Counted from the stretch's first letter, positions 1,930 to 12,008 are shown. The stretch is DNA of 64,000 bases from Chloroflexota bacterium (GCA_963663275.1 OY760183.1:3040001-3104000); one strand, 5' to 3'. Numbers and translations: made by a program. Notes: generated by a model from the letters alone, not told the origin.

Positions 1930-2778
1930 ATGACTAATCTGGATAGACGAGCCTGGATCGGCATCTCCGCCCTAGCGGTGGGCGTGGTCATTCTGCTCAT
2001 CGTGATCTTTGCTTCCGTCCGCAACGCGGGCCAGCAGTTCCTCAACCTCTTCCGCGTCGAACAGGCGCAGACGATACAACTCACGCAAGAGTTCCTGGAT
2101 TCCCTGCCGGAGCCGGACAGCGAGATTATCCAGTGGGTGCAGGAGCCGTCCGATGAGTTCGAACCGCGTGAAGTTTCGCTTGAAGATGCCGAAGAGGAAC
2201 TCGGCTTCCGCTTGGCGCGGCTGACCGAGCCGCCGGACGTTCTCCAGACGGAGCCGGAAGTCTGGCTTACCGAAGCGGATGAAGCCACCTTTACGCTGGA
2301 CCTGCCCGGCGTGCGCAACTACATCTGGGCATTGGGCGGCGACGGCGCTATGCTCCCCGATAGCCTGGAAGGCGCGGTCTTCCGCGTCACCATGCCCCAG
2401 GTAGGGATGCTCTACTACGCAGCGAAAGACAACCCCGACCAGGGCGTGCGTCTCTTCCAGACCACCAGCCCCACGCTCGCGGTCCCTGACGGCATCGACA
2501 TGGACGCCATTCGCGACGAACTCCTGGAACTGGACATCCTGCCCCCGGAACTGGCCGCGCAACTGCGAGCGATAGAGGATTGGGAGAGCACCCTGCCGCT
2601 GCCGCTGGTGGAAGGCATGTCCGAGGAAGTAAGCGTTGGCTCCGCGACCGCGGTGCGGTTCTTCAACGTGGACGACGAAGACCGTATGCTCGTCTGGGTC
2701 GCTCAAAACCGTATCCACGTGCTGAGCACGAATGTGCCCGACCTGGACCTGGCCGCGCTGGCGGAGAGCGTCGAGTAG
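1930..2778 (+). CDS. Membrane-anchored hypothetical protein resembling the extracytoplasmic part of anti-sigma factors
   Basis: N-terminal TM helix then an acidic domain (QFLNLFRVEQ, LRAIEDWESTLPLPL); GGAGG before ATG 1930. Confidence 0.6.
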   Translation: MTNLDRRAWIGISALAVGVVILLIVIFASVRNAGQQFLNLFRVEQAQTIQLTQEFLDSLPEPDSEIIQWVQEPSDEFEPREVSLEDAEEELGFRLARLTEPPDVLQTEPEVWLTEADEATFTLDLPGVRNYIWALGGDGAMLPDSLEGAVFRVTMPQVGMLYYAAKDNPDQGVRLFQTTSPTLAVPDGIDMDAIRDELLELDILPPELAAQLRAIEDWESTLPLPLVEGMSEEVSVGSATAVRFFNVDDEDRMLVWVAQNRIHVLSTNVPDLDLAALAESVE

Positions 2779-2873
2779 GACTCTAGTGGGGTTGGATAGG
2801 GAGATCCCCTAGGTCCTAATCCACGATTTCGAGCGAACCACATCGTGATACTGTGCAAACCATACCGTGAAGT

Positions 2874-3218
2874 CGAACGACCCGTACCGTTCGCCCTGAG
2901 CATCGTCGAAGGGTGAACGGTAGGGGAAAACGGGCAAAAGTTTCCAAAGCGCCGCCCTCTCCGTTCATGCTTCGACAGGCTCAGCACGAACGGAGAGAGG
3001 CGCCCTGACCCTTATCCACGATAACGTGCGAACCATTCCGCGTAGATGAACGAAGCATTTCCCGTAGACGAGCGACCCCTACCGTGACGACGAACGACCC
3101 ATCCCGTTCGCCCTGAGCATCGTCGAAGGGTGAACGGTACGGGTAATCAGTAAGAGTTCCCAAGACGCCGCTCTTTCCGTTCGTGCTGAGCCTGTCGAAG
3201 CATGAACGGAAAGAGCGG
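2874..3218. repeat. Two REP family A doublets (CCGTTCGCCCTGAGC..GTCGAAGGGTGAACGG type)
   Basis: Near-duplicate units at about 2874-2998 and 3092-3218; the family recurs at about 28799, 39123, 39185, 44866, 44926 and 45052. Confidence 0.85.
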
Positions 3219-3433
3219 CGTACATTACACTGGGAATAAACAGGACAAGACTCCGTCGTTGCCTCACCCAGTCCGTCATTCCCGCTCACTCAGTCCGTCA
3301 CTCCGGCGCAAGCCGGAATCCAGCTTCCGCTCGCGTCACGGATTCCCTCCCGCGCGGGATGCGCCGACCGCCTGCATTAAGGTACCCTGATGCCGGTAGA
3401 TTATGTCCGCTCATCTTGGAAGAGGAGACCTCA

Positions 3434-4108
3434 ATGAATTACGAGATTCTGCACCGGCCGTCGTACGCGCTGTTGAAGGTTGACCTAGCCGCCGGTGAGA
3501 GCGTGAGCGCCGAATCCGGCGCGATGGTCAGCATGTCCGACGGCATTGAGATCGAAACCAGTATGCGCGGCGGCCTCTTGGGCGGATTGAAGCGCAAGGT
3601 CCTGGGCGGCGAGTCGTTCTTCGTGAACACATTCAACGCTTCGCAAGACGGCGAGGTGAACTTCGCCCCCAGCCTGCCCGGCGACGTCTACGCGGTGGAA
3701 CTGCGCGGCGAGACCATCTACGCGCAATCCGGGGCCTACATCGCCTCCACCGCCGGCATCGACGTGGACACCTCCTGGGGCGGCGCCAAGACCTTCTTCT
3801 CCGGCGAAGGCTTCTTCATGCTCAAGATCAGTGGCAGCGGCACGGTCTTCCTCTCCAGTTATGGCGCGATTCACGAAGTCGAACTGGCGGCCGGCCAGAC
3901 CTACACCGTGGATACCGGTCACATGGTCTCTTTCGCCGAAGGCGTGGGCTACAACGTGCGGCGCGTGGGCGGAATGAAGTCCACCTTCTTCAGCGGCGAA
4001 GGCCTGGTGGTGGAACTCACCGGCCCCGGCACGATCACCATCCAATCCCGCAGCACCGACGCCCTGCTGGCATGGCTCATACCCCACCTGCCAGACAAGT
4101 CGGGATAA
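3434..4108 (+). CDS. TIGR00266/AIM24 family protein
   Basis: AESGAMVSMS, GGESFFVNTF, FFSGEG repeats, VDTGHMV; GAGGAG RBS before ATG 3434. Confidence 0.92.
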   Translation: MNYEILHRPSYALLKVDLAAGESVSAESGAMVSMSDGIEIETSMRGGLLGGLKRKVLGGESFFVNTFNASQDGEVNFAPSLPGDVYAVELRGETIYAQSGAYIASTAGIDVDTSWGGAKTFFSGEGFFMLKISGSGTVFLSSYGAIHEVELAAGQTYTVDTGHMVSFAEGVGYNVRRVGGMKSTFFSGEGLVVELTGPGTITIQSRSTDALLAWLIPHLPDKSG

Positions 4109-5375
4109 CGGCAGACTCTTCAAAACTGTCCTCCAGACAAGCTGGGTTCCGTTCAACGGATCCGTCGAGTACGCGGCTAAGCGCCAAAGAGATAGGGAAG
4201 ACTTCCTACTAACGTAGGGACTCTTGATGTTGTTGATAGAGTGCGCAGGCCATGTGTGCCCAGAAGATTGGCAAAGGCTCAGGCCGACGAACATTGAGAT
4301 TGTGCCCAAGGCTGGCATGTCAGACGCTCCCGCGCTACTTCAACGCTGAGACTAGAAGACCCATGCCCTTCGCCAGGCAGCAAAGGCCTGCCTCTCGGGT
4401 TTCCGTATGTCAGTATTTGCGCTTCAGGCGCCCCTGGTTACGGATACTCACTTAGAGTCATTGCAAGCCGCGGTAGATCGTGGCACGAGATTGCCCTGAC
4501 CGATGGTCGCAAGAGCGTGCAGTCTGATACAATGCACATTAGGGACATTGGAGCGGCAGTAAAGAAAGGAGTGGCTACTAGCGCATAACATCAATAGCTG
4601 CTGGTGTCTCTGCATCCTTATTGACACCCCTTGCATGCGAAGTCCAATTCATAAAACCGTGGGAGATTCTTCCCTCCGTTTTAGCGAAAGGACGCGCGAT
4701 GCCCAGCGGAAATGTAACTGACCGCAAGCCCATATATAGAATTATAGATTTGTGGCGAAAGATCGTGCCGGGTAATGCTGTGGGCACTTCGAAGTGTAAC
4801 CCAGAGCCGCTTCTGAAGAGAGTGCGCAATAACAATATAATGACGTTCATTTGGGAGCACAAGATGGGCTGCATATGTTTTCTGGAATTTGTTCTCCTAA
4901 TGTTGGATGTATTTGACAGGTTCAAGTAAGAATCGGTGGTAGAGCCCGTTAATCCGGGAGCCATTGAGTACGCCTTGAACCAATTTTGGACGCGCTTCAA
5001 CCGCGGGCGCTGATGGAAAGTGCTTCGCAAAGCAAGGGTACGATAGGTCGAGGGCCGCCGAGCTTGGAGCATTCAATGTCCCAGGCAAGGCGGCTCTTGG
5101 CGTCGGTAGGCGCGCCGGCTGTCTGCTCTCTGTTTTGGGGGCAAGCCCCTAACTCTCAACGTAAAGGCAAGTCGTGTAGAGTGCTGCGGAGGACACTCCC
5201 GGTTCTCAGGGAAGGCAATGACCTCGGCCGCGCTCGTGCCGACATCCTAGCTGTCCACCGTGGGTAGCTACGTTGTCTTCGCGCACCTGTAGACTGACGT
5301 TCTCTGTGAGTACCTCAGATCGTATCCTGCGCGCGGTCAATTATGCCCTTTTGCCAATGAACTGGCTAAAGACGC

Positions 5376-5404
5376 TTGCGCATGGGGCAACACTGTGCTA
5401 AAAT
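5376..5404 (+). promoter_or_regulatory. Sigma70-like promoter (TTGCGC, TGn-TAAAAT)
   Basis: -35-like TTGCGC, 17-bp spacer and extended -10 upstream of the HEPN leader. Confidence 0.5.
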
Positions 5405-5529
5405 CCCTACGGATAAGCAAAGTCCAGAAGGAGGTGTGCTATGGTTTAGCAAACGGCATTGGAATTTTTGAAGTGTGAAGAAACATTTAAATTCCAATCT
5501 TTCTGAACAGCGGAATCAAGCAAAGCACT

Positions 5530-5551
5530 AGCACCTGTCGGTGCTTTTTTT
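5530..5551 (+). terminator. Intrinsic terminator in the leader of the HEPN gene
   Basis: AGCACC-TGTC-GGTGCT hairpin followed by a T run. Confidence 0.7.
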
Positions 5552-5587
5552 AATTTTGCTTACCGTATGGCAAGGAGTGTATTTGCC

Positions 5588-6076
5588 ATGGCCACAATTC
5601 GAAACCGTTCTACGCTGAGTTCTGACCTTCTCTTGGACGAGGCGCTAAGGGCGTGCCAACGGGGCCTCGCGAAGTACTGCTCACGCAAGTTGGTGCCGCC
5701 TTACTTTCGGCCCGATGAACTTGGCGATTTCGTGTTCGCTGTCGTCGGTCATCGATTGAATTTCCGGGGCTCCGATCCGGACCGCCTTTTCGAGCGCATG
5801 GATGAGGACTCCCTCCTCATGTTCATTGATAAGGCAGACTGGAGGATGGCCGATTTCTTCAGTGAGTTGACCCATTACGAGAGAGGGTTTGTCAAGAGCC
5901 TGCTCGTCCAGACCCGCTACTTTCGCGGCCTCTATGCTCACCGGCAGGAGATTCCGATAGACGACCAAGAATACTTCCTTGCAGGGCTCATTCGCCTACT
6001 GAGGATGGTTGAGGCGCACGAGGAAGCGGTTGAGGTCGAAGGCATTCGGATGAGGGCTAGGAGCGCGTCTCACTGA
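5588..6076 (+). CDS. Stand-alone Swt1-like HEPN domain protein (putative RNase)
   Basis: All-helical pattern LDEALRACQRGLAKY..MDEDSLL..W..FF..ERGFVKSL..RGLYAHRQEIPIDD..LIRLL fits the Swt1-like HEPN pattern with R-x4-H; AAGGAG RBS before ATG 5588 (alternative start 5567). Confidence 0.7.
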   Translation: MATIRNRSTLSSDLLLDEALRACQRGLAKYCSRKLVPPYFRPDELGDFVFAVVGHRLNFRGSDPDRLFERMDEDSLLMFIDKADWRMADFFSELTHYERGFVKSLLVQTRYFRGLYAHRQEIPIDDQEYFLAGLIRLLRMVEAHEEAVEVEGIRMRARSASH

Positions 6077-6369
6077 GAAGCTAGCCGTTGGCGCCGGTTG
6101 AGAGGGCACTAACGACTGCCGGTTTCCTCGTAGGCTAGAGGCCAACGGGCAAAAGGCCGTCGCGATTGGATCAATTGGTGATCCGGGCGCGGCGGCCATT
6201 TGCGTCTGTAGCGGGCGCGTCGGCTGCCCGCCCTTTGTTCATGGGCAAGCCAGATCAGCTTAAGGCTTGAGTAACCGGTGTTTGGCGCCCCAGAGAACGT
6301 CCCATTGCTTGAGGAGAGTGCTCCAAGTCGGTGTCGCGTTCAGTGCAAATTCTGAGTAGCGGCGTTCGG

Positions 6370-6615
6370 CTACAGTTCCGTTTCTAAGGTTCTGGCATGC
6401 GTGAGGTCTGCACCGGTTACGGGACGCGCCTGTGAGGGCAGAACCGTTGCAATGGCCACGGTCTCGCCGTCCAAGAACATGAACTCCACCACGAAGGCCT
6501 CGCTGCCGGGGTGCACGTGGACGATCGTGCCAACGTCGCCTGGCTGCAATTCCTCTCCGGCATCGCCAGAAACGGCAGAGAGGAGTACGATTTGTTCGTG
6601 CTCCTTGACTACTAT
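6370..6615 (-). pseudogene. DUF4926 domain protein with non-canonical or lost start (ATA)
   Basis: Frame IVVKEHEQIVLL..LQPGDVGTIVHVHPGSEAFVVEFMFLDGETVAIATVLPSQARPV; absent from the ORF track because it lacks a standard start. Confidence 0.7.
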
Positions 6616-6740
6616 TTCATGTTCCTCCTGGGCTTTGCCGCATTAAGTCTTGAGTATTCGCTGTCCTGTTCAATCCGCCAGCCGGTCACGACGCGCTGGC
6701 CTCGTCCTTCCAGCGTCCTATTCTCACCCTCGTCGTAGTG
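6612..6740 (-). pseudogene. Degenerate C-terminal remnant of a DUF6883-like gene
   Basis: HYDEGENRTLEGRGQRVVTGWRIEQDSEYSRLNAAKP resembles the C-terminus of the usual DUF4926 partner; stop overlaps the DUF4926 start. Confidence 0.5.
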
Positions 6741-7047
6741 TCAAGAACTATGGACGGCATGAGAGCAGCATTCGCAACCTCGTGGACTGCGTGATGTACT
6801 GCTATGACATCTGAAGAGTCTGCCAAGGCGCAGCAAGCATCCGATTCGACAGTCTTGGCCACTTGGTTCGACCGCTTGTGCCGTCGTAAAGTGCAAGTGG
6901 CCCATCTTTGGAAGCAAGAAGTGGCAATAGGAGATGTGCGACTGGATACAGCCCCTGAGCGTCAACGACTGAAAGCCTCCATGGATTTTTATCTAAAACC
7001 AAACGGGACTGGCGATACAGCACCAGTCCCGTTCATCTTGTAACGAA

Positions 7048-7287
7048 TCAATCAGTCTGCTGACGCTTCTCCTGTTCCTCTTTCCGCATCGGGTCCAACC
7101 CTGAACGGATTGCAGATAGGCTCCGAGCAAAGCAGTAGGGAATCACGGCTACGCACAAGGCGATAGCGGCAGCGGCGGCCTCCTGCGGGGAACTTTCGGC
7201 AGCAGATACACCGATTGCGAATACCCCACAGCCCGCCAGAGAAGCCAGCAGAGCGAATAGCCAAGCCAGTGAGTTAAGGATACGCAT
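7048..7287 (-). CDS. Small two-TM membrane protein
   Basis: Two hydrophobic helices around AESSPQEAAAAAIALCVAVIPYCFAR; 11 bp downstream of the secreted-protein gene. Confidence 0.75.
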   Translation of the reverse strand: MRILNSLAWLFALLASLAGCGVFAIGVSAAESSPQEAAAAAIALCVAVIPYCFARSLSAIRSGLDPMRKEEQEKRQQTD

Positions 7288-7298
7288 TGAAGCACCGC

Positions 7299-7940
7299 CT
7301 AGTTGCCAGCCGGAACTGGAACGAATCCCCGATCCATAGCGCGGAATTCAATGCGGGTGAGAGTAACCTGCTCGTTTACGTCGAAGATGGCAAGGCACGA
7401 CAGCGACCCAAGAGGCGATATCTGCTCGTCACAACCGATGATATCGACTGGCTCGAACTGTCGCCCGACTGCGTCAAAGCCTATCAGCCCTTCGTCATGA
7501 GAGAATGTGTCCAGATCGCCAACGTGAAACTTGCTCGGGCCAATGCCAACATTGGTGAGACGGAGTCCGACAAGGAGTAACTTGTGGTTATCCGCACTTG
7601 GGGTATATGTCTTGCCCCAAAAGCCGCTTGTCTCGAAGGATTCCCGTCTCTGAACTCCTAGCACCTCAAAAGCAAAGTTGCCAATGCGCGTGCCGGAATC
7701 GAAGGACAGGGAACTATCTGACAGCGGCAGTTTTGAATCTATCTCAATGGTGACGGGTACCTCGATCTGGTACTCGACTCCGTCGTAAGTGAACGTCAGC
7801 AGGGCCGTACTGCTGACTGAGGCTTCAATAGTTACTTTGCCGCCCTCGACCGTGACGCTTCCCTCGTTGGCAAATAGCGTCGGCACAAACAAGAACAGCA
7901 GTATACTCAGGGCAAGAGAACGAACGATCAGCCTACGCAT
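7299..7940 (-). CDS. Secreted beta-rich protein (DUF4352-like Ig fold)
   Basis: Signal peptide MRRLIVRSLALSILLFLFVPTLFA; LLLVGLRLTNVG..DAVGRQF..ISPLGS..AIFDV; AGGAGG RBS. Confidence 0.7.
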   Translation of the reverse strand: MRRLIVRSLALSILLFLFVPTLFANEGSVTVEGGKVTIEASVSSTALLTFTYDGVEYQIEVPVTIEIDSKLPLSDSSLSFDSGTRIGNFAFEVLGVQRRESFETSGFWGKTYTPSADNHKLLLVGLRLTNVGIGPSKFHVGDLDTFSHDEGLIGFDAVGRQFEPVDIIGCDEQISPLGSLSCLAIFDVNEQVTLTRIEFRAMDRGFVPVPAGN

Positions 7941-8076
7941 AGCGGTGCCTCCTCGCGACACAAACTTGAACTTTGGTCGCGACACCTAAGCACCTGAGCG
8001 AGCCGCGAGGAGACAAGTGTCCCTCGGCTCAAGCTTGTGCCTCGAAGCTCGCTCCAAATACCGTATAGGTGTCGCA
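7941..8076 (-). ncRNA. Candidate structured cis-regulatory 5' leader, copy 1
   Basis: Homologous to 8182-8319; stems GCGACACCT/AGGTGTCGC and GCGAGC/GCTCGC; anti-SD TGTCTCCTCGCG. Confidence 0.6.
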
Positions 8077-8082
8077 AGCAGC

Positions 8083-8174
8083 ATCGTATCAGGAGGCGAA
8101 ATTCACGTCAATTCTATGTCTACTTATTTCGCATGAGCCCATCATTGACGCAATTCTTCCCACTATGCTAATGT
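8083..8174. promoter_or_regulatory. Back-to-back sigma70 promoters
   Basis: Minus strand TTGACG(8111-8106)-17-TACGAT; plus strand TTGACG(8145-8150)-18-TAATGT; both have a TGn extended -10. Confidence 0.7.
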
Positions 8175-8181
8175 AACGCCA

Positions 8182-8319
8182 CGCGACACCTTAAGAGGCC
8201 CTGGCGAGCTTCGGGCACACACCTTGAGCTATTGGTTTAATTTGTCTCCTGGCGGCTCGCACGTGCGCTTGAGGTGTCGCGACCAAGAGCTCATCGTAGT
8301 GTCGCGAGGAGGCGTCATT
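8182..8319 (+). ncRNA. Candidate structured cis-regulatory 5' leader, copy 2
   Basis: CGCGACACCT 8182-8191 pairs AGGTGTCGCG 8272-8281; GCGAGC 8204-8209 pairs GCTCGC 8255-8260; TGTCTCCT 8243-8250 is complementary to SD AGGAGG 8307-8312. Confidence 0.6.
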
Positions 8320-8562
8320 GTGGGTACTACTGAGATTCTCATTCTCTCTCTCGTCGTAGTCGCCGGCTACTTCATCCCGCTCATTGTTGCACTGGTCCGG
8401 CGCAAGACCGGGCGCATGCAGGTCTTCATCGTCAACCTCTTCTTCGGTTGGACGTTCATCGGTTGGGTTATCGCATTGGTCATGGCATTCGGCTCAGACA
8501 GCGTCACTGTGGTGCACACAGTAGACCAGGGTACAAGGTCTGAAACGAAGGACGGTGAGTAA
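8320..8562 (+). CDS. Superinfection immunity protein (Imm_superinfect family)
   Basis: YFIPLIVALVR..VFIVNLFFGWTFIGWVIALVMA signature; GTG start after AGGAGG. Confidence 0.88.
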   Translation: MGTTEILILSLVVVAGYFIPLIVALVRRKTGRMQVFIVNLFFGWTFIGWVIALVMAFGSDSVTVVHTVDQGTRSETKDGE

Positions 8563-9185
8563 TGCGGGATACCAACGAGCAAATCGCCATTGAGCGCATT
8601 GACCCCGGCCAGGATAAGGAACTGTTGGCGCACATAGCCAACGAAGTTAGCGCGATTCTCACCGAGAACGAGCAATTCCAATACATCGCGCATCAGAATT
8701 GGACGGCTTTCGGTCAACGCAAGGATGCCCTCGTTGCCACCAACAACCGCTTGATCATCTATCAACGCCATTGGTTCGGGCAGTTAACGTTCCACGACTT
8801 TCTTTGGGAGGATGTCAAGAACGTCACGATCCGCGAGGGATTCATAGCCGCCCACATTTCATGCGAACTGACCGATGGCTGGACACACTTTGCCGGCGGC
8901 CTGGTGAAGACTCAGGCCCGCGCGCTCTATGCTATCTGCCAGCAGAAAGAACAAGAGTGGCGCGAGCGTCGCCGCGTGCGCAAAATGGAAGAAGAACGCG
9001 CCCGCGCGGGCGGCACTCAGATTACGGTGCCCGGCAGTCAAATGACGGCACCGAGTAGCGAGGCACCTAACGAAGGTGGATCCTCCCTAGACAAACTGAC
9101 GCAAGCGAAGCAAATGTTCGACCAAGAGTTAATCTCTGAATCGGAGTACGAGACGTTGAAGGCGAACATCCTTAGCAAGATGTGA
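8562..9185 (+). CDS. Bacterial PH-domain protein with C-terminal SHOCT
   Basis: ALVATNNRLIIY; C-terminal LDKLTQAKQMFDQELISESEYETLKANIL; TAATG coupling to the upstream gene. Confidence 0.85.
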   Translation: MRDTNEQIAIERIDPGQDKELLAHIANEVSAILTENEQFQYIAHQNWTAFGQRKDALVATNNRLIIYQRHWFGQLTFHDFLWEDVKNVTIREGFIAAHISCELTDGWTHFAGGLVKTQARALYAICQQKEQEWRERRRVRKMEEERARAGGTQITVPGSQMTAPSSEAPNEGGSSLDKLTQAKQMFDQELISESEYETLKANILSKM

Positions 9186-10910: not shown

Positions 10911-12008
10911 CTATGCCGGCGTTACGGAGATCCCGCTGCCCTCGCTCACGCTGCCGATGATCCAGCAGGGCTCGTTGGCGGCGCGGAAGGCTGCTTCCAG
11001 TTGGGCCTGCCGTTGGGGCGGTACGGCTGCCAGGAGGCCGCCGCTGGTCTGGGGATCGAAGAGCAGCGCGGCAAGCGCAGGCGGGATTGCCGCGTCCAGC
11101 GTCAGCAGTCCTTCGTCCAGCAGGTGCGCGCGGTTGCGGTCCAGGCCGCCGGGAACCACGCCGTCGCGAGCGTAGTCCAGCGCGCCGGACAGCAGCGGGA
11201 CGGCTTGGGCGTCGATGATGAACCGGACGTTGCCGTGGCGCGCCATCTCCATGGCGTGGCCGAGCAGGCCGTAGCCAGTGACGTCGGTGCAGGCGTGGAT
11301 TCCGTTCGCCACTCCCACACCGTCCGTCTCTCCCGCGCAAGCGGTAGTCCCGGCGCCCAACCTCTGAAACAGCCGCGCGGCGCCGGCGTTCAGGCGGCAC
11401 ATGCTCGCGATGGCCTCCTCCAAGTGCGCCGGCGCCACGCAATCGCGCTTGTGGGCCGTGGTTATTACGCCGGTGCCGATCGGTTTCGTCAGCGCCAGCA
11501 GATCGCCTGGTTGCGCGCCGGACTTCGTGAAGATGCGGTCGGGATGCACCTGGCCGGTCACCGCCAGGCCGTACTTCGGCTCCTCGTCGGTCACCGTATG
11601 CCCGCCGGCGATCACCGCGCCGGCTTCCAGTACCTTGTCCGCGCCGCCCAGGAAGATGCGGCCCAGGATGTCCAGGTCCAGGTCGTCCGGAAAGCCCGCC
11701 AGGTTCAGGGCAAAGAGCGGCTCGCCGCCCATGGCGTAGACGTCGCTCAGGGCATTGGCGGCGGCAATTTGGCCGTAGGCGTAGGGGTCGTCCACCACGG
11801 GAGGAAAGAAGTCCGCCGTGCCGATGATGGCCCGCTCGTCGCTGATCCGATAGACGGCGGCGTCATCGGGCGCGGTGAGACCGACCAGCAGGTTGCTATT
11901 GGCTTGGGAGGGAAAGGCGCGCAGCACCTGCGCGAGCTCGGCGGGGCCGAGTTTGCCCGCTCACCCGGCGCAGTCGGCCAAGGCGGTCAATCGTACCGGT
12001 GTTGTCAT
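10911..12008 (-). CDS. selD: Selenide, water dikinase SelD with in-frame UGA (Sec16)
   Basis: MTTPVRLTALADCAG-UGA(11963-11961)-AGKLGP joins in frame to DDAAVY, NALSDVYAMGG, GGHT, TDVTGYGLLGH and DPQTSGGLL. Confidence 0.93.

Follow-up and report, generated by a model that had tools for sequence, protein, structure and literature searches.

A stand-alone Swt1-like HEPN gene behind a structured, predicted terminated leader RNA in a defence hot spot of a Chloroflexota genome

In the 64-kb window (the whole stretch of DNA analysed here, from a Chloroflexota bacterium), a small gene for a Swt1-like HEPN protein lies directly behind a structured leader, and both are part of an insertion next to a gene for an AIM24 protein. 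An earlier note on this DNA had described a promoter-like site, an AT-rich leader with a 10-bp stem, a terminator and a small ORF with the motif RGLYAH, and direct reading of the sequence recovers every one of these at the coordinates listed here.

4109–6369, no strand assigned: strain-specific insertion of 2.26 kb, flanked by the genes for AIM24 and DUF4926 (sister comparison).
5376–5404, plus strand: putative promoter-like site with an extended −10, read by eye.
5411–5551, plus strand: predicted terminated leader RNA of ~141 nt, drawn from folds, with both ends putative.
5411–5425, plus strand: 5' hairpin GGAU/GUCC with the loop AAGCAAA in the fold, with the RNA presumed to start near 5411.
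5428–5436, plus strand: Shine–Dalgarno-like AAGGAGGTG, perfect over 9 nt (sequence reading).
5441–5449, plus strand: two-codon mini-ORF ATG GTT TAG, 4 nt past AAGGAGGTG (sequence reading).
5458–5498, plus strand: central hairpin with a perfect 10-bp outer stem and a second stem continuing inside (repeat scan and fold).
5530–5551, plus strand: intrinsic terminator AGCACC-TGTC-GGTGCT followed by seven T, with a 6-bp stem and a 4-nt loop (terminator scan).
5555–5562, plus strand: TTTGCTTA, complementary to both AAGCAAA copies, at 5414–5421 and 5518–5524 (complement scan).
5566–5590, plus strand: 9-bp hairpin of −9.8 kcal/mol (fold).
5588–6076, plus strand: gene for the 162-aa stand-alone Swt1-like HEPN protein P0003 (ORF and homology).
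5924–5941, plus strand: codons of R113-G-L-Y-A-H118, the R-x4-H motif (alignment).

Besides the leader and the HEPN gene, the insertion contains 1.27 kb of ORF-poor DNA, and its G+C content is 54%, compared with 63% for the window. None of 16 genomes of the same genus has a DNA match to 4109–6369, and the AIM24 (3359–4108) and selD (10911–11927) genes are linked in all 16, at distances of 1.7–7.0 kb. In the seven sister intervals that were fetched for this slot (loci L154–L160), counterparts are confined to positions 4042–4107, 6380–6608 and 9425 onwards of the window, and the spacer between the AIM24 and DUF4926 genes in the sisters is ~100 nt. The segment 4109–6369 is classified as a strain-specific insertion because the only genes common to the window and all seven intervals are the DUF4926 gene and a gene for a 233-aa protein. 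The DUF4926 gene was considered as a partner of the HEPN gene and was ruled out, being kept in all seven sister intervals, which are devoid of HEPN.

The cargo of the slot varies among the sister genomes. Gene matches identify CBASS (cyclase, patatin, E2, HTH and M78 peptidase) in G013 and G001, IetA/IetS (IetAS) in G006, and PDC-M24A/B with DUF4926 in G002 and G013; the same three ORFs as in PDC-M24A/B plus DUF4926 are seen, by eye only, in G007 and G010. Judging by this gene content, the AIM24–selD interval is an anti-phage defence hot spot in the genus, and the defence setting proposed earlier for the cassette holds to that extent. The window carries further strain-specific cargo at 7048–9185, where the genes encode a small DUF5325-like membrane protein, an unassigned 227-aa protein, a superinfection-immunity protein (Imm_superinfect) and a protein with bacterial PH and SHOCT domains; none of these genes has a PADLOC match.

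For the ORF-poor part of the insertion (4109–5375), comparisons with plasmids, with phages and with the remainder of the genome gave no match. A protein gene in this stretch is rejected for now, given that there is no Pfam match and that even the longest ORF does not resemble a protein (atlas recognition 1185). Over 4480–5375, the fold of the plus strand has a z of −3.3 (0 of 20 shuffles) compared with −1.1 for the minus strand, and the terminator-like sites within 4000–7000, eight in number, are all on the plus strand. The stretch may encode a long RNA with structure, or it may be cargo that has decayed.

The open frame of the HEPN gene spans 5567–6076. The first in-frame ATG, at 5567, is not preceded by a ribosome site, and AAGGAG is located 10 nt upstream of the ATG at 5588, which is most likely the translation start, yielding 162 aa: in addition to the AAGGAG, the protein collection has the exact 162-aa form, and the start of the closest relative falls within 1–2 codons of this position. 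An exhaustive phmmer search against 1.84 billion representatives returned two relatives only, both singletons from metagenome assemblies, namely P0001 (160 aa, 92% identical to P0003) and P0002 (158 aa, 44% identical, E 6e-24), and a word-index profile search yielded nothing beyond the three known sequences. On its own, P0003 scores 16.3 bits against PF18731, under the Pfam cut-off of 27.5 bits, which P0002 passes with 33.4 bits. The Swt1 family model missed P0003 in its own genome, a profile search of PDB sequences has no match at E ≤ 10, and PADLOC has no family for P0003 or P0002. When the three-member family is compared by hhalign with 22 Swt1-like HEPN domains from related genomes, the probability is 96% (E 4.4e-9, 115 columns), with a match at every invariant column (D, W, F, R, A and H). 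R113 and H118, invariant in the three members, align with the invariant R and H, and the upstream acidic residue D72 aligns with the invariant D. The clusters nearest to P0003 in the protein atlas are Swt1-like HEPN (0.94, 191 of 256 features). By these alignments, P0003 is a divergent Swt1-like HEPN domain that keeps the R, the H and the acidic residue, which agrees with the earlier assignment to Swt1-like HEPN proteins with R-x4-H.

According to the 2013 survey of HEPN proteins, helix 3 ends with the R-x4-6-H motif; the survey lists the R and H as residues shown to be essential, and describes the residue after R as typically N, D or H, with a role in catalysis in KEN (PMC3710099). In all three members of the family this residue is glycine (G114 in P0003; RGLYAH or RGLWAH), so that RNase activity may be weak or altered. 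Conceivably, the HEPN domain could be catalytically feeble or inactive, with G replacing the polar residue, and the protein could be an RNA-binding protein or a sensor and not a toxin; this would accord with the presence of N or D after R in 18 of the 22 compared domains (our own count on the alignment) and with the opinion in the same survey that the eukaryotic Swt1 HEPN is inactive (PMC3710099). Such a role is improbable considering that the family retains R, H, D72 and the A preceding H, that the first two of these are the essential residues of the survey (PMC3710099), and that 4 of the 22 domains also lack N or D after R.

All three known members are ~160 aa long, in line with the earlier description of the protein as stand-alone. 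In the 98 genomes of the class, the 38 matches to PF18731 are all in open frames of at least 268 aa, mostly over 1000 aa, and across 401 genomes of the phylum, 90 of the 95 matches (a count that includes one unpublished genome, G403, from which no conclusion is drawn) are in open frames longer than 220 aa. Frames of 202 aa or less account for five of the 95; three of them are incomplete or run to the edge of a contig, and one is in G403. The 185-aa Swt1-like HEPN of G232 was ruled out as a comparable cassette because it adjoins an integrase and has no upstream terminator or leader. The protein atlas holds clusters of 144–154-aa Swt1-like HEPN proteins with 52, 78 and 489 members. The earlier statement that this domain is usually fused to larger proteins is thus valid in the phylum but does not extend to these clusters elsewhere; on the sequences searched, small Swt1-like HEPN forms do exist elsewhere, and the family of P0003 itself is very rare. 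In plasmids, tblastn finds no match to P0003 and, with P0002, just Swt1 family proteins of ~1100 aa beside DUF1156 and helicase genes. Phages gave no match by DNA and none with P0002, and searches of genome_contigs, metagenome_contigs and viral_contigs found no relatives, nor the contigs of P0001 and P0002.

The AlphaFold model of P0003, built on just three sequences, is all-helical (pLDDT 74.7, pTM 0.70), and the R-x4-H motif is predicted to be at the end of helix 96–117, the third long helix. In VIA-align, the top row is PbAbiF bound to ncRNA (8vz6_B, Z 7.2, rmsd 3.9, 152 aligned) and the third row, 4pqz_A (Z 6.8, rmsd 3.4, 126 of 136 aligned), is the C-terminal domain of Swt1 from yeast, a Z of ~7 being in the range that the tool deems unspecific for helical proteins; 8xdj_A has a Z of 6.1, and other HEPN proteins rank below 8vz6_B and 4pqz_A. 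Foldseek with the P0003 model gives no match at E ≤ 0.001. The homodimer prediction scores 0.59 compared with 0.00 for the best control, with runs agreeing in at least 95% of the contacts and a partner pLDDT of at least 81; of the solved homodimers 20 of 30 pass the mark, and of the single chains 1 of 23. The predicted interface is formed by residues 97–114 and 125–136, that is, the motif helix and helix 4. This outcome fits the dimers known for HEPN proteins, although it may reflect only likeness to HEPN dimers already solved.

The putative promoter upstream of the gene consists of the −35 element TTGCGC (5376–5381), a 17-nt spacer and TGc followed by TAAAAT (5396–5404). The site is not listed by the consensus promoter scan because the −35 fits at just three of the six positions, and the promoter call is therefore an eye reading. 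The predicted leader RNA has a G+C content of 41%, compared with 63% for the 64-kb window, and folds at −41.5 kcal/mol with a z of −2.6 (1 of 200 shuffles is equally good); a second computation gave a z of −2.7. In the central hairpin, the arms ATTGGAATTT (5458–5467) and AAATTCCAAT (5489–5498) pair exactly, and given that a perfect stem of at least 10 bp appears in 9 of 1000 dinucleotide shuffles, this stem is unlikely to have arisen by chance. The Shine–Dalgarno-like AAGGAGGTG and the start-Val-stop mini-ORF within the leader may be a ribosome-loading or decoy element.

Two further regularities to which the earlier note had drawn attention are present in the sequence but stay within chance. 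The three AGCAAA copies in the leader begin at 5416, 5448 and 5519; some 6-mer reaches at least three copies in 587 of 5000 shuffles, so the repetition is not significant. The complement between TAAGCAAA (5414–5421) and TTTGCTTA (5555–5562), the latter existing in read-through RNA only, is exact, and TTTGCTTA pairs with the 5' end of the leader in the centroid fold, but an 8-nt complement between the leader and the post-terminator sequence is seen in 368 of 5000 shuffles (55 of 5000 when limited post hoc to 5405–5430).

The terminator is better distinguished from its background. The site at 5530–5551 is the only hairpin followed by at least six T on either strand of the 64-kb window, under a criterion of at least 5 bp with at least 3 GC and then T ≥ 6, the window holding just four such T/A runs. 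It is not the terminator of a protein gene, as the nearest upstream gene on the plus strand ends at 4108, and the ORF listing has no upstream protein gene within 1.4 kb. The A-rich segment 5509–5528 is able to pair with the T-tract and with the downstream TTTTGCT (complement scan and fold). Between the terminator and the start codon, the consensus scan detects no promoter on the plus strand, and since this gap spans only 36 nt, too little to fit a promoter, expression of the HEPN gene would depend on read-through from a putative transcription start ~177 nt 5' of the ATG at 5588. In the read-through RNA, the hairpin at 5566–5590 encloses the entire start codon AUG at 5588 together with one half of the ribosome site AAGGAG.

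A closely similar layout has been described for RCd22/AbiF of a Clostridioides difficile prophage, where a SigA promoter drives a 132-nt RNA with a terminator, transcription starts 168 nt before the ATG, an internal promoter is absent, the toxin gene is expressed by read-through, and the RNA neutralises the HEPN toxin in cis as well as in trans (bioRxiv 10.1101/2025.04.15.648962). Reviews describe the ncRNA of AbiF as blocking the active site of the HEPN protein, and name AbiF as a possible ancestor of Cas13 (PMC13064643, PMC12737573).

The signals around the terminator would also suit a leader that acts in cis only, with an attenuator and a translation-blocking hairpin keeping the HEPN RNase very low and with no antitoxin role in trans; the protein would then be a stand-alone effector RNase of defence or stress response, switched on by more read-through or by another signal. 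The position of the terminator so close to the start, the sequestered start codon (−9.8 kcal/mol), the alternative folds that 5509–5528 offers with the T-tract and TTTTGCT, which are typical of attenuators, the perfect Shine–Dalgarno sequence with its mini-ORF within the leader, and the absence of repeats and of a known antitoxin motif from the leader are all compatible with this arrangement, and a ‘riboswitch-like’ premature termination component is described for RCd22 as well (10.1101/2025.04.15.648962). What makes the cis-only leader somewhat doubtful is that it matches no ligand-binding or protein-binding RNA family in Rfam, that the closest characterised relatives with this layout, those of AbiF, use the RNA as an antitoxin too (PMC13064643, PMC12737573), and that a free HEPN toxin without a neutraliser would be unusual.

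The leader has no relative in any of the collections searched. Rfam assigns it to no family (E ≤ 1 over 2500–7500; E ≤ 10 over 5350–5620), the abiF motif RF03085 included; it is a single copy in its own genome, with none in the 16 sister genomes or in phages, and a 22-mer from it has 0 matches in genome_contigs. The stem pattern has 117 matches in metagenomes, none with shared flanks or a HEPN gene, and these are therefore regarded as chance AT-rich hairpins. In sponge-metagenome runs, the variants of the ORF begin at ~5596–5598 (X2 record 9, X4 record 19), the left-hand variant contig loses its likeness to the window at 5337 (X4 record 18), the contigs from run X1 leave 5307–5461 uncovered, and no variant contig covers the leader at a likeness of 80% or more. 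This pattern hints weakly at a lack of conservation of the leader, or it may reflect no more than assembly breaks.

The lack of variant contigs over the leader would be expected if the leader and the HEPN gene had no functional link, the former being a small RNA gene in its own right or left over from earlier cargo, and the latter a poorly expressed or decaying passenger. The G+C content of the leader is 41% compared with 56% for the ORF, so that the two may differ in origin, and the slot is full of remnants: the 1.27-kb ORF-poor stretch, the DUF4926 gene without a native start and a possible DUF6883 fragment (E 0.1). Such independence is nevertheless unlikely, because the ORF is intact, three members with identities as low as 44% all have ~160 aa and an invariant motif, the ribosome site is 10 nt before the ATG, the leader promoter is the only visible source of transcription for the promoterless HEPN gene, and the terminator is unique in the window.

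The cassette can be set against four known types of system. An RNA gene directly upstream of the HEPN gene, with a terminator between them and a promoter read by eye, constitutes a type III layout, and the order of promoter, antitoxin RNA, terminator and endoribonuclease gene is the same in ToxIN, CptIN and TenpIN. The antitoxins of these systems, however, are tandem repeats cut by the toxin, whereas the repeat scan of the leader detects no ToxI-like tandem repeats, only pairs of 8 nt and one of 15 nt that is 80% identical; a ToxIN-like type III system is ruled out on these grounds. The toxins of ToxIN, CptIN and TenpIN have a different, non-HEPN fold. Of the earlier type III proposal, then, the order of the elements stands, as a fit to AbiF-RCd22, and the ToxI-like repeats are missing. 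HEPN-MNT pairs likewise have a small HEPN RNase as the toxin, but the HEPN of those pairs is of another family and is accompanied by an adjacent nucleotidyltransferase gene. When the neighbouring ORFs were compared with Pfam, NCBIfam and PADLOC, no protein partner gene was found adjoining the HEPN gene and, as stated previously, no nucleotidyltransferase gene, so that a HEPN-MNT pair is ruled out. Proteins of the Ava_2192 type (PF18731) share a homologous HEPN domain with R-x4-H, but they are ~1100 aa long, with HEPN fused to a DUF499 AAA+ ATPase, and belong to R-M-like operons, near DUF1156 methylase and helicase genes; in contrast, P0003 has 162 aa, stands alone, is ~30% identical and has G after R.

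The closest likeness is to AbiF/RCd22, with which the cassette shares the succession of a promoter, a structured RNA of ~130–140 nt, an intrinsic terminator and a HEPN RNase gene expressed by read-through, a mobile or defence context, and the PbAbiF–ncRNA complex as the top structural row for P0003. Membership in AbiF is ruled out, since both an Abi_2 match and the abiF RNA motif (RF03085) are absent: a Pfam scan of P0003 at E ≤ 1 finds HEPN_Swt1 only and no Abi_2, the protein has 162 aa compared with ~300 aa, and the leader lacks the abiF motif. The link between RNA and protein belongs to AbiF, whereas the present cassette is known from its sequence. Table 1 of the 2013 survey puts AbiF and Swt1-like HEPN in one Abi2/Swt1 clade (PMC3710099).

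Because the layout fits AbiF-RCd22 and because AbiF and Swt1-like HEPN share a clade, an AbiF-like type III arrangement is favoured. Under this preferred reading, to which we assign a probability of roughly 40%, the locus would be a horizontally acquired single-gene toxin or defence cassette with the mode of action of AbiF-RCd22. That the cassette exists, is rare and has a location well suited to defence is clear; an RNA antitoxin is plausible, if unproven. The proposed mechanism, for which we infer the transcription ends, the RNase activity, the toxicity and the RNA–protein binding, would run as follows. The constitutive extended −10 promoter would produce mostly a structured RNA of ~141 nt that stops at the intrinsic terminator, and occasional read-through would yield the mRNA of the 162-aa Swt1-like HEPN endoribonuclease, in which the 9-bp hairpin would additionally bury the start codon. 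The active form of the HEPN protein would be a dimer whose interface includes the R-x4-H helices, and the abundant short RNA would bind this dimer and hold it inactive, in the manner of a type III antitoxin. A drop in the RNA supply, for example through a phage-induced shut-off, would free the RNase and arrest the cell.

In its boldest form, the AbiF-like reading would make P0003 a minimal, 162-aa RNase of the Swt1 clade that is restrained by its own upstream RNA of ~140 nt, and thus a second, independent lineage of HEPN proteins with RNA antitoxins beside AbiF; this is a tentative proposition that is more apt to fail than to hold. AbiF, a HEPN toxin neutralised by a cis-encoded RNA and the proposed ancestor of Cas13, is so far the sole protein family, with a single RNA motif, to which this logic is tied. 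A much smaller HEPN protein of the sister Swt1-like family, with an unrelated RNA in the AbiF layout, would broaden the type III systems, and RNA neutralisation would become a wider trait of the Abi2/Swt1 clade, the thought source of Cas13, with an RNA of a new fold. It would also offer a compact RNA-controlled RNase for study and would bear on the origin of RNA-guided nucleases. If the leader is an attenuator only, the locus would amount to no more than an orphan RNase of defence, kept under tight repression within a hot spot.

Downstream of the insertion, the DUF4926 gene (6370–6740, minus strand) has to be read from 6642 for its match to the Pfam model to begin at profile position 2, and 6642 is a position without an ATG, GTG or TTG start, and the DUF4926 forms of the sisters have 93–103 aa. 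The 42-codon frame upstream of it (6612–6740) bears a weak likeness to the C-terminal end of DUF6883 (E 0.1), a toxin reported to precede DUF4926 (bioRxiv 10.64898/2026.08.28.747851). From its sequence, 6370–6740 is probably a truncated immunity gene with a remnant of a toxin. Many contigs of 80–90% likeness from the sponge-metagenome runs X2–X4 stack on 6415–6530, within DUF4926, with unlike sequence on both sides, and the DUF4926 gene therefore occurs in many contexts within these runs.

On the other side of the AIM24 gene, 2951–3002 and 3164–3222 form long, near-perfect GC-rich hairpins that draw false microRNA matches in Rfam (E 0.015–0.4, far under the gathering scores); in appearance they are copies of an intergenic, palindromic repeat located between 2786 and 3359.
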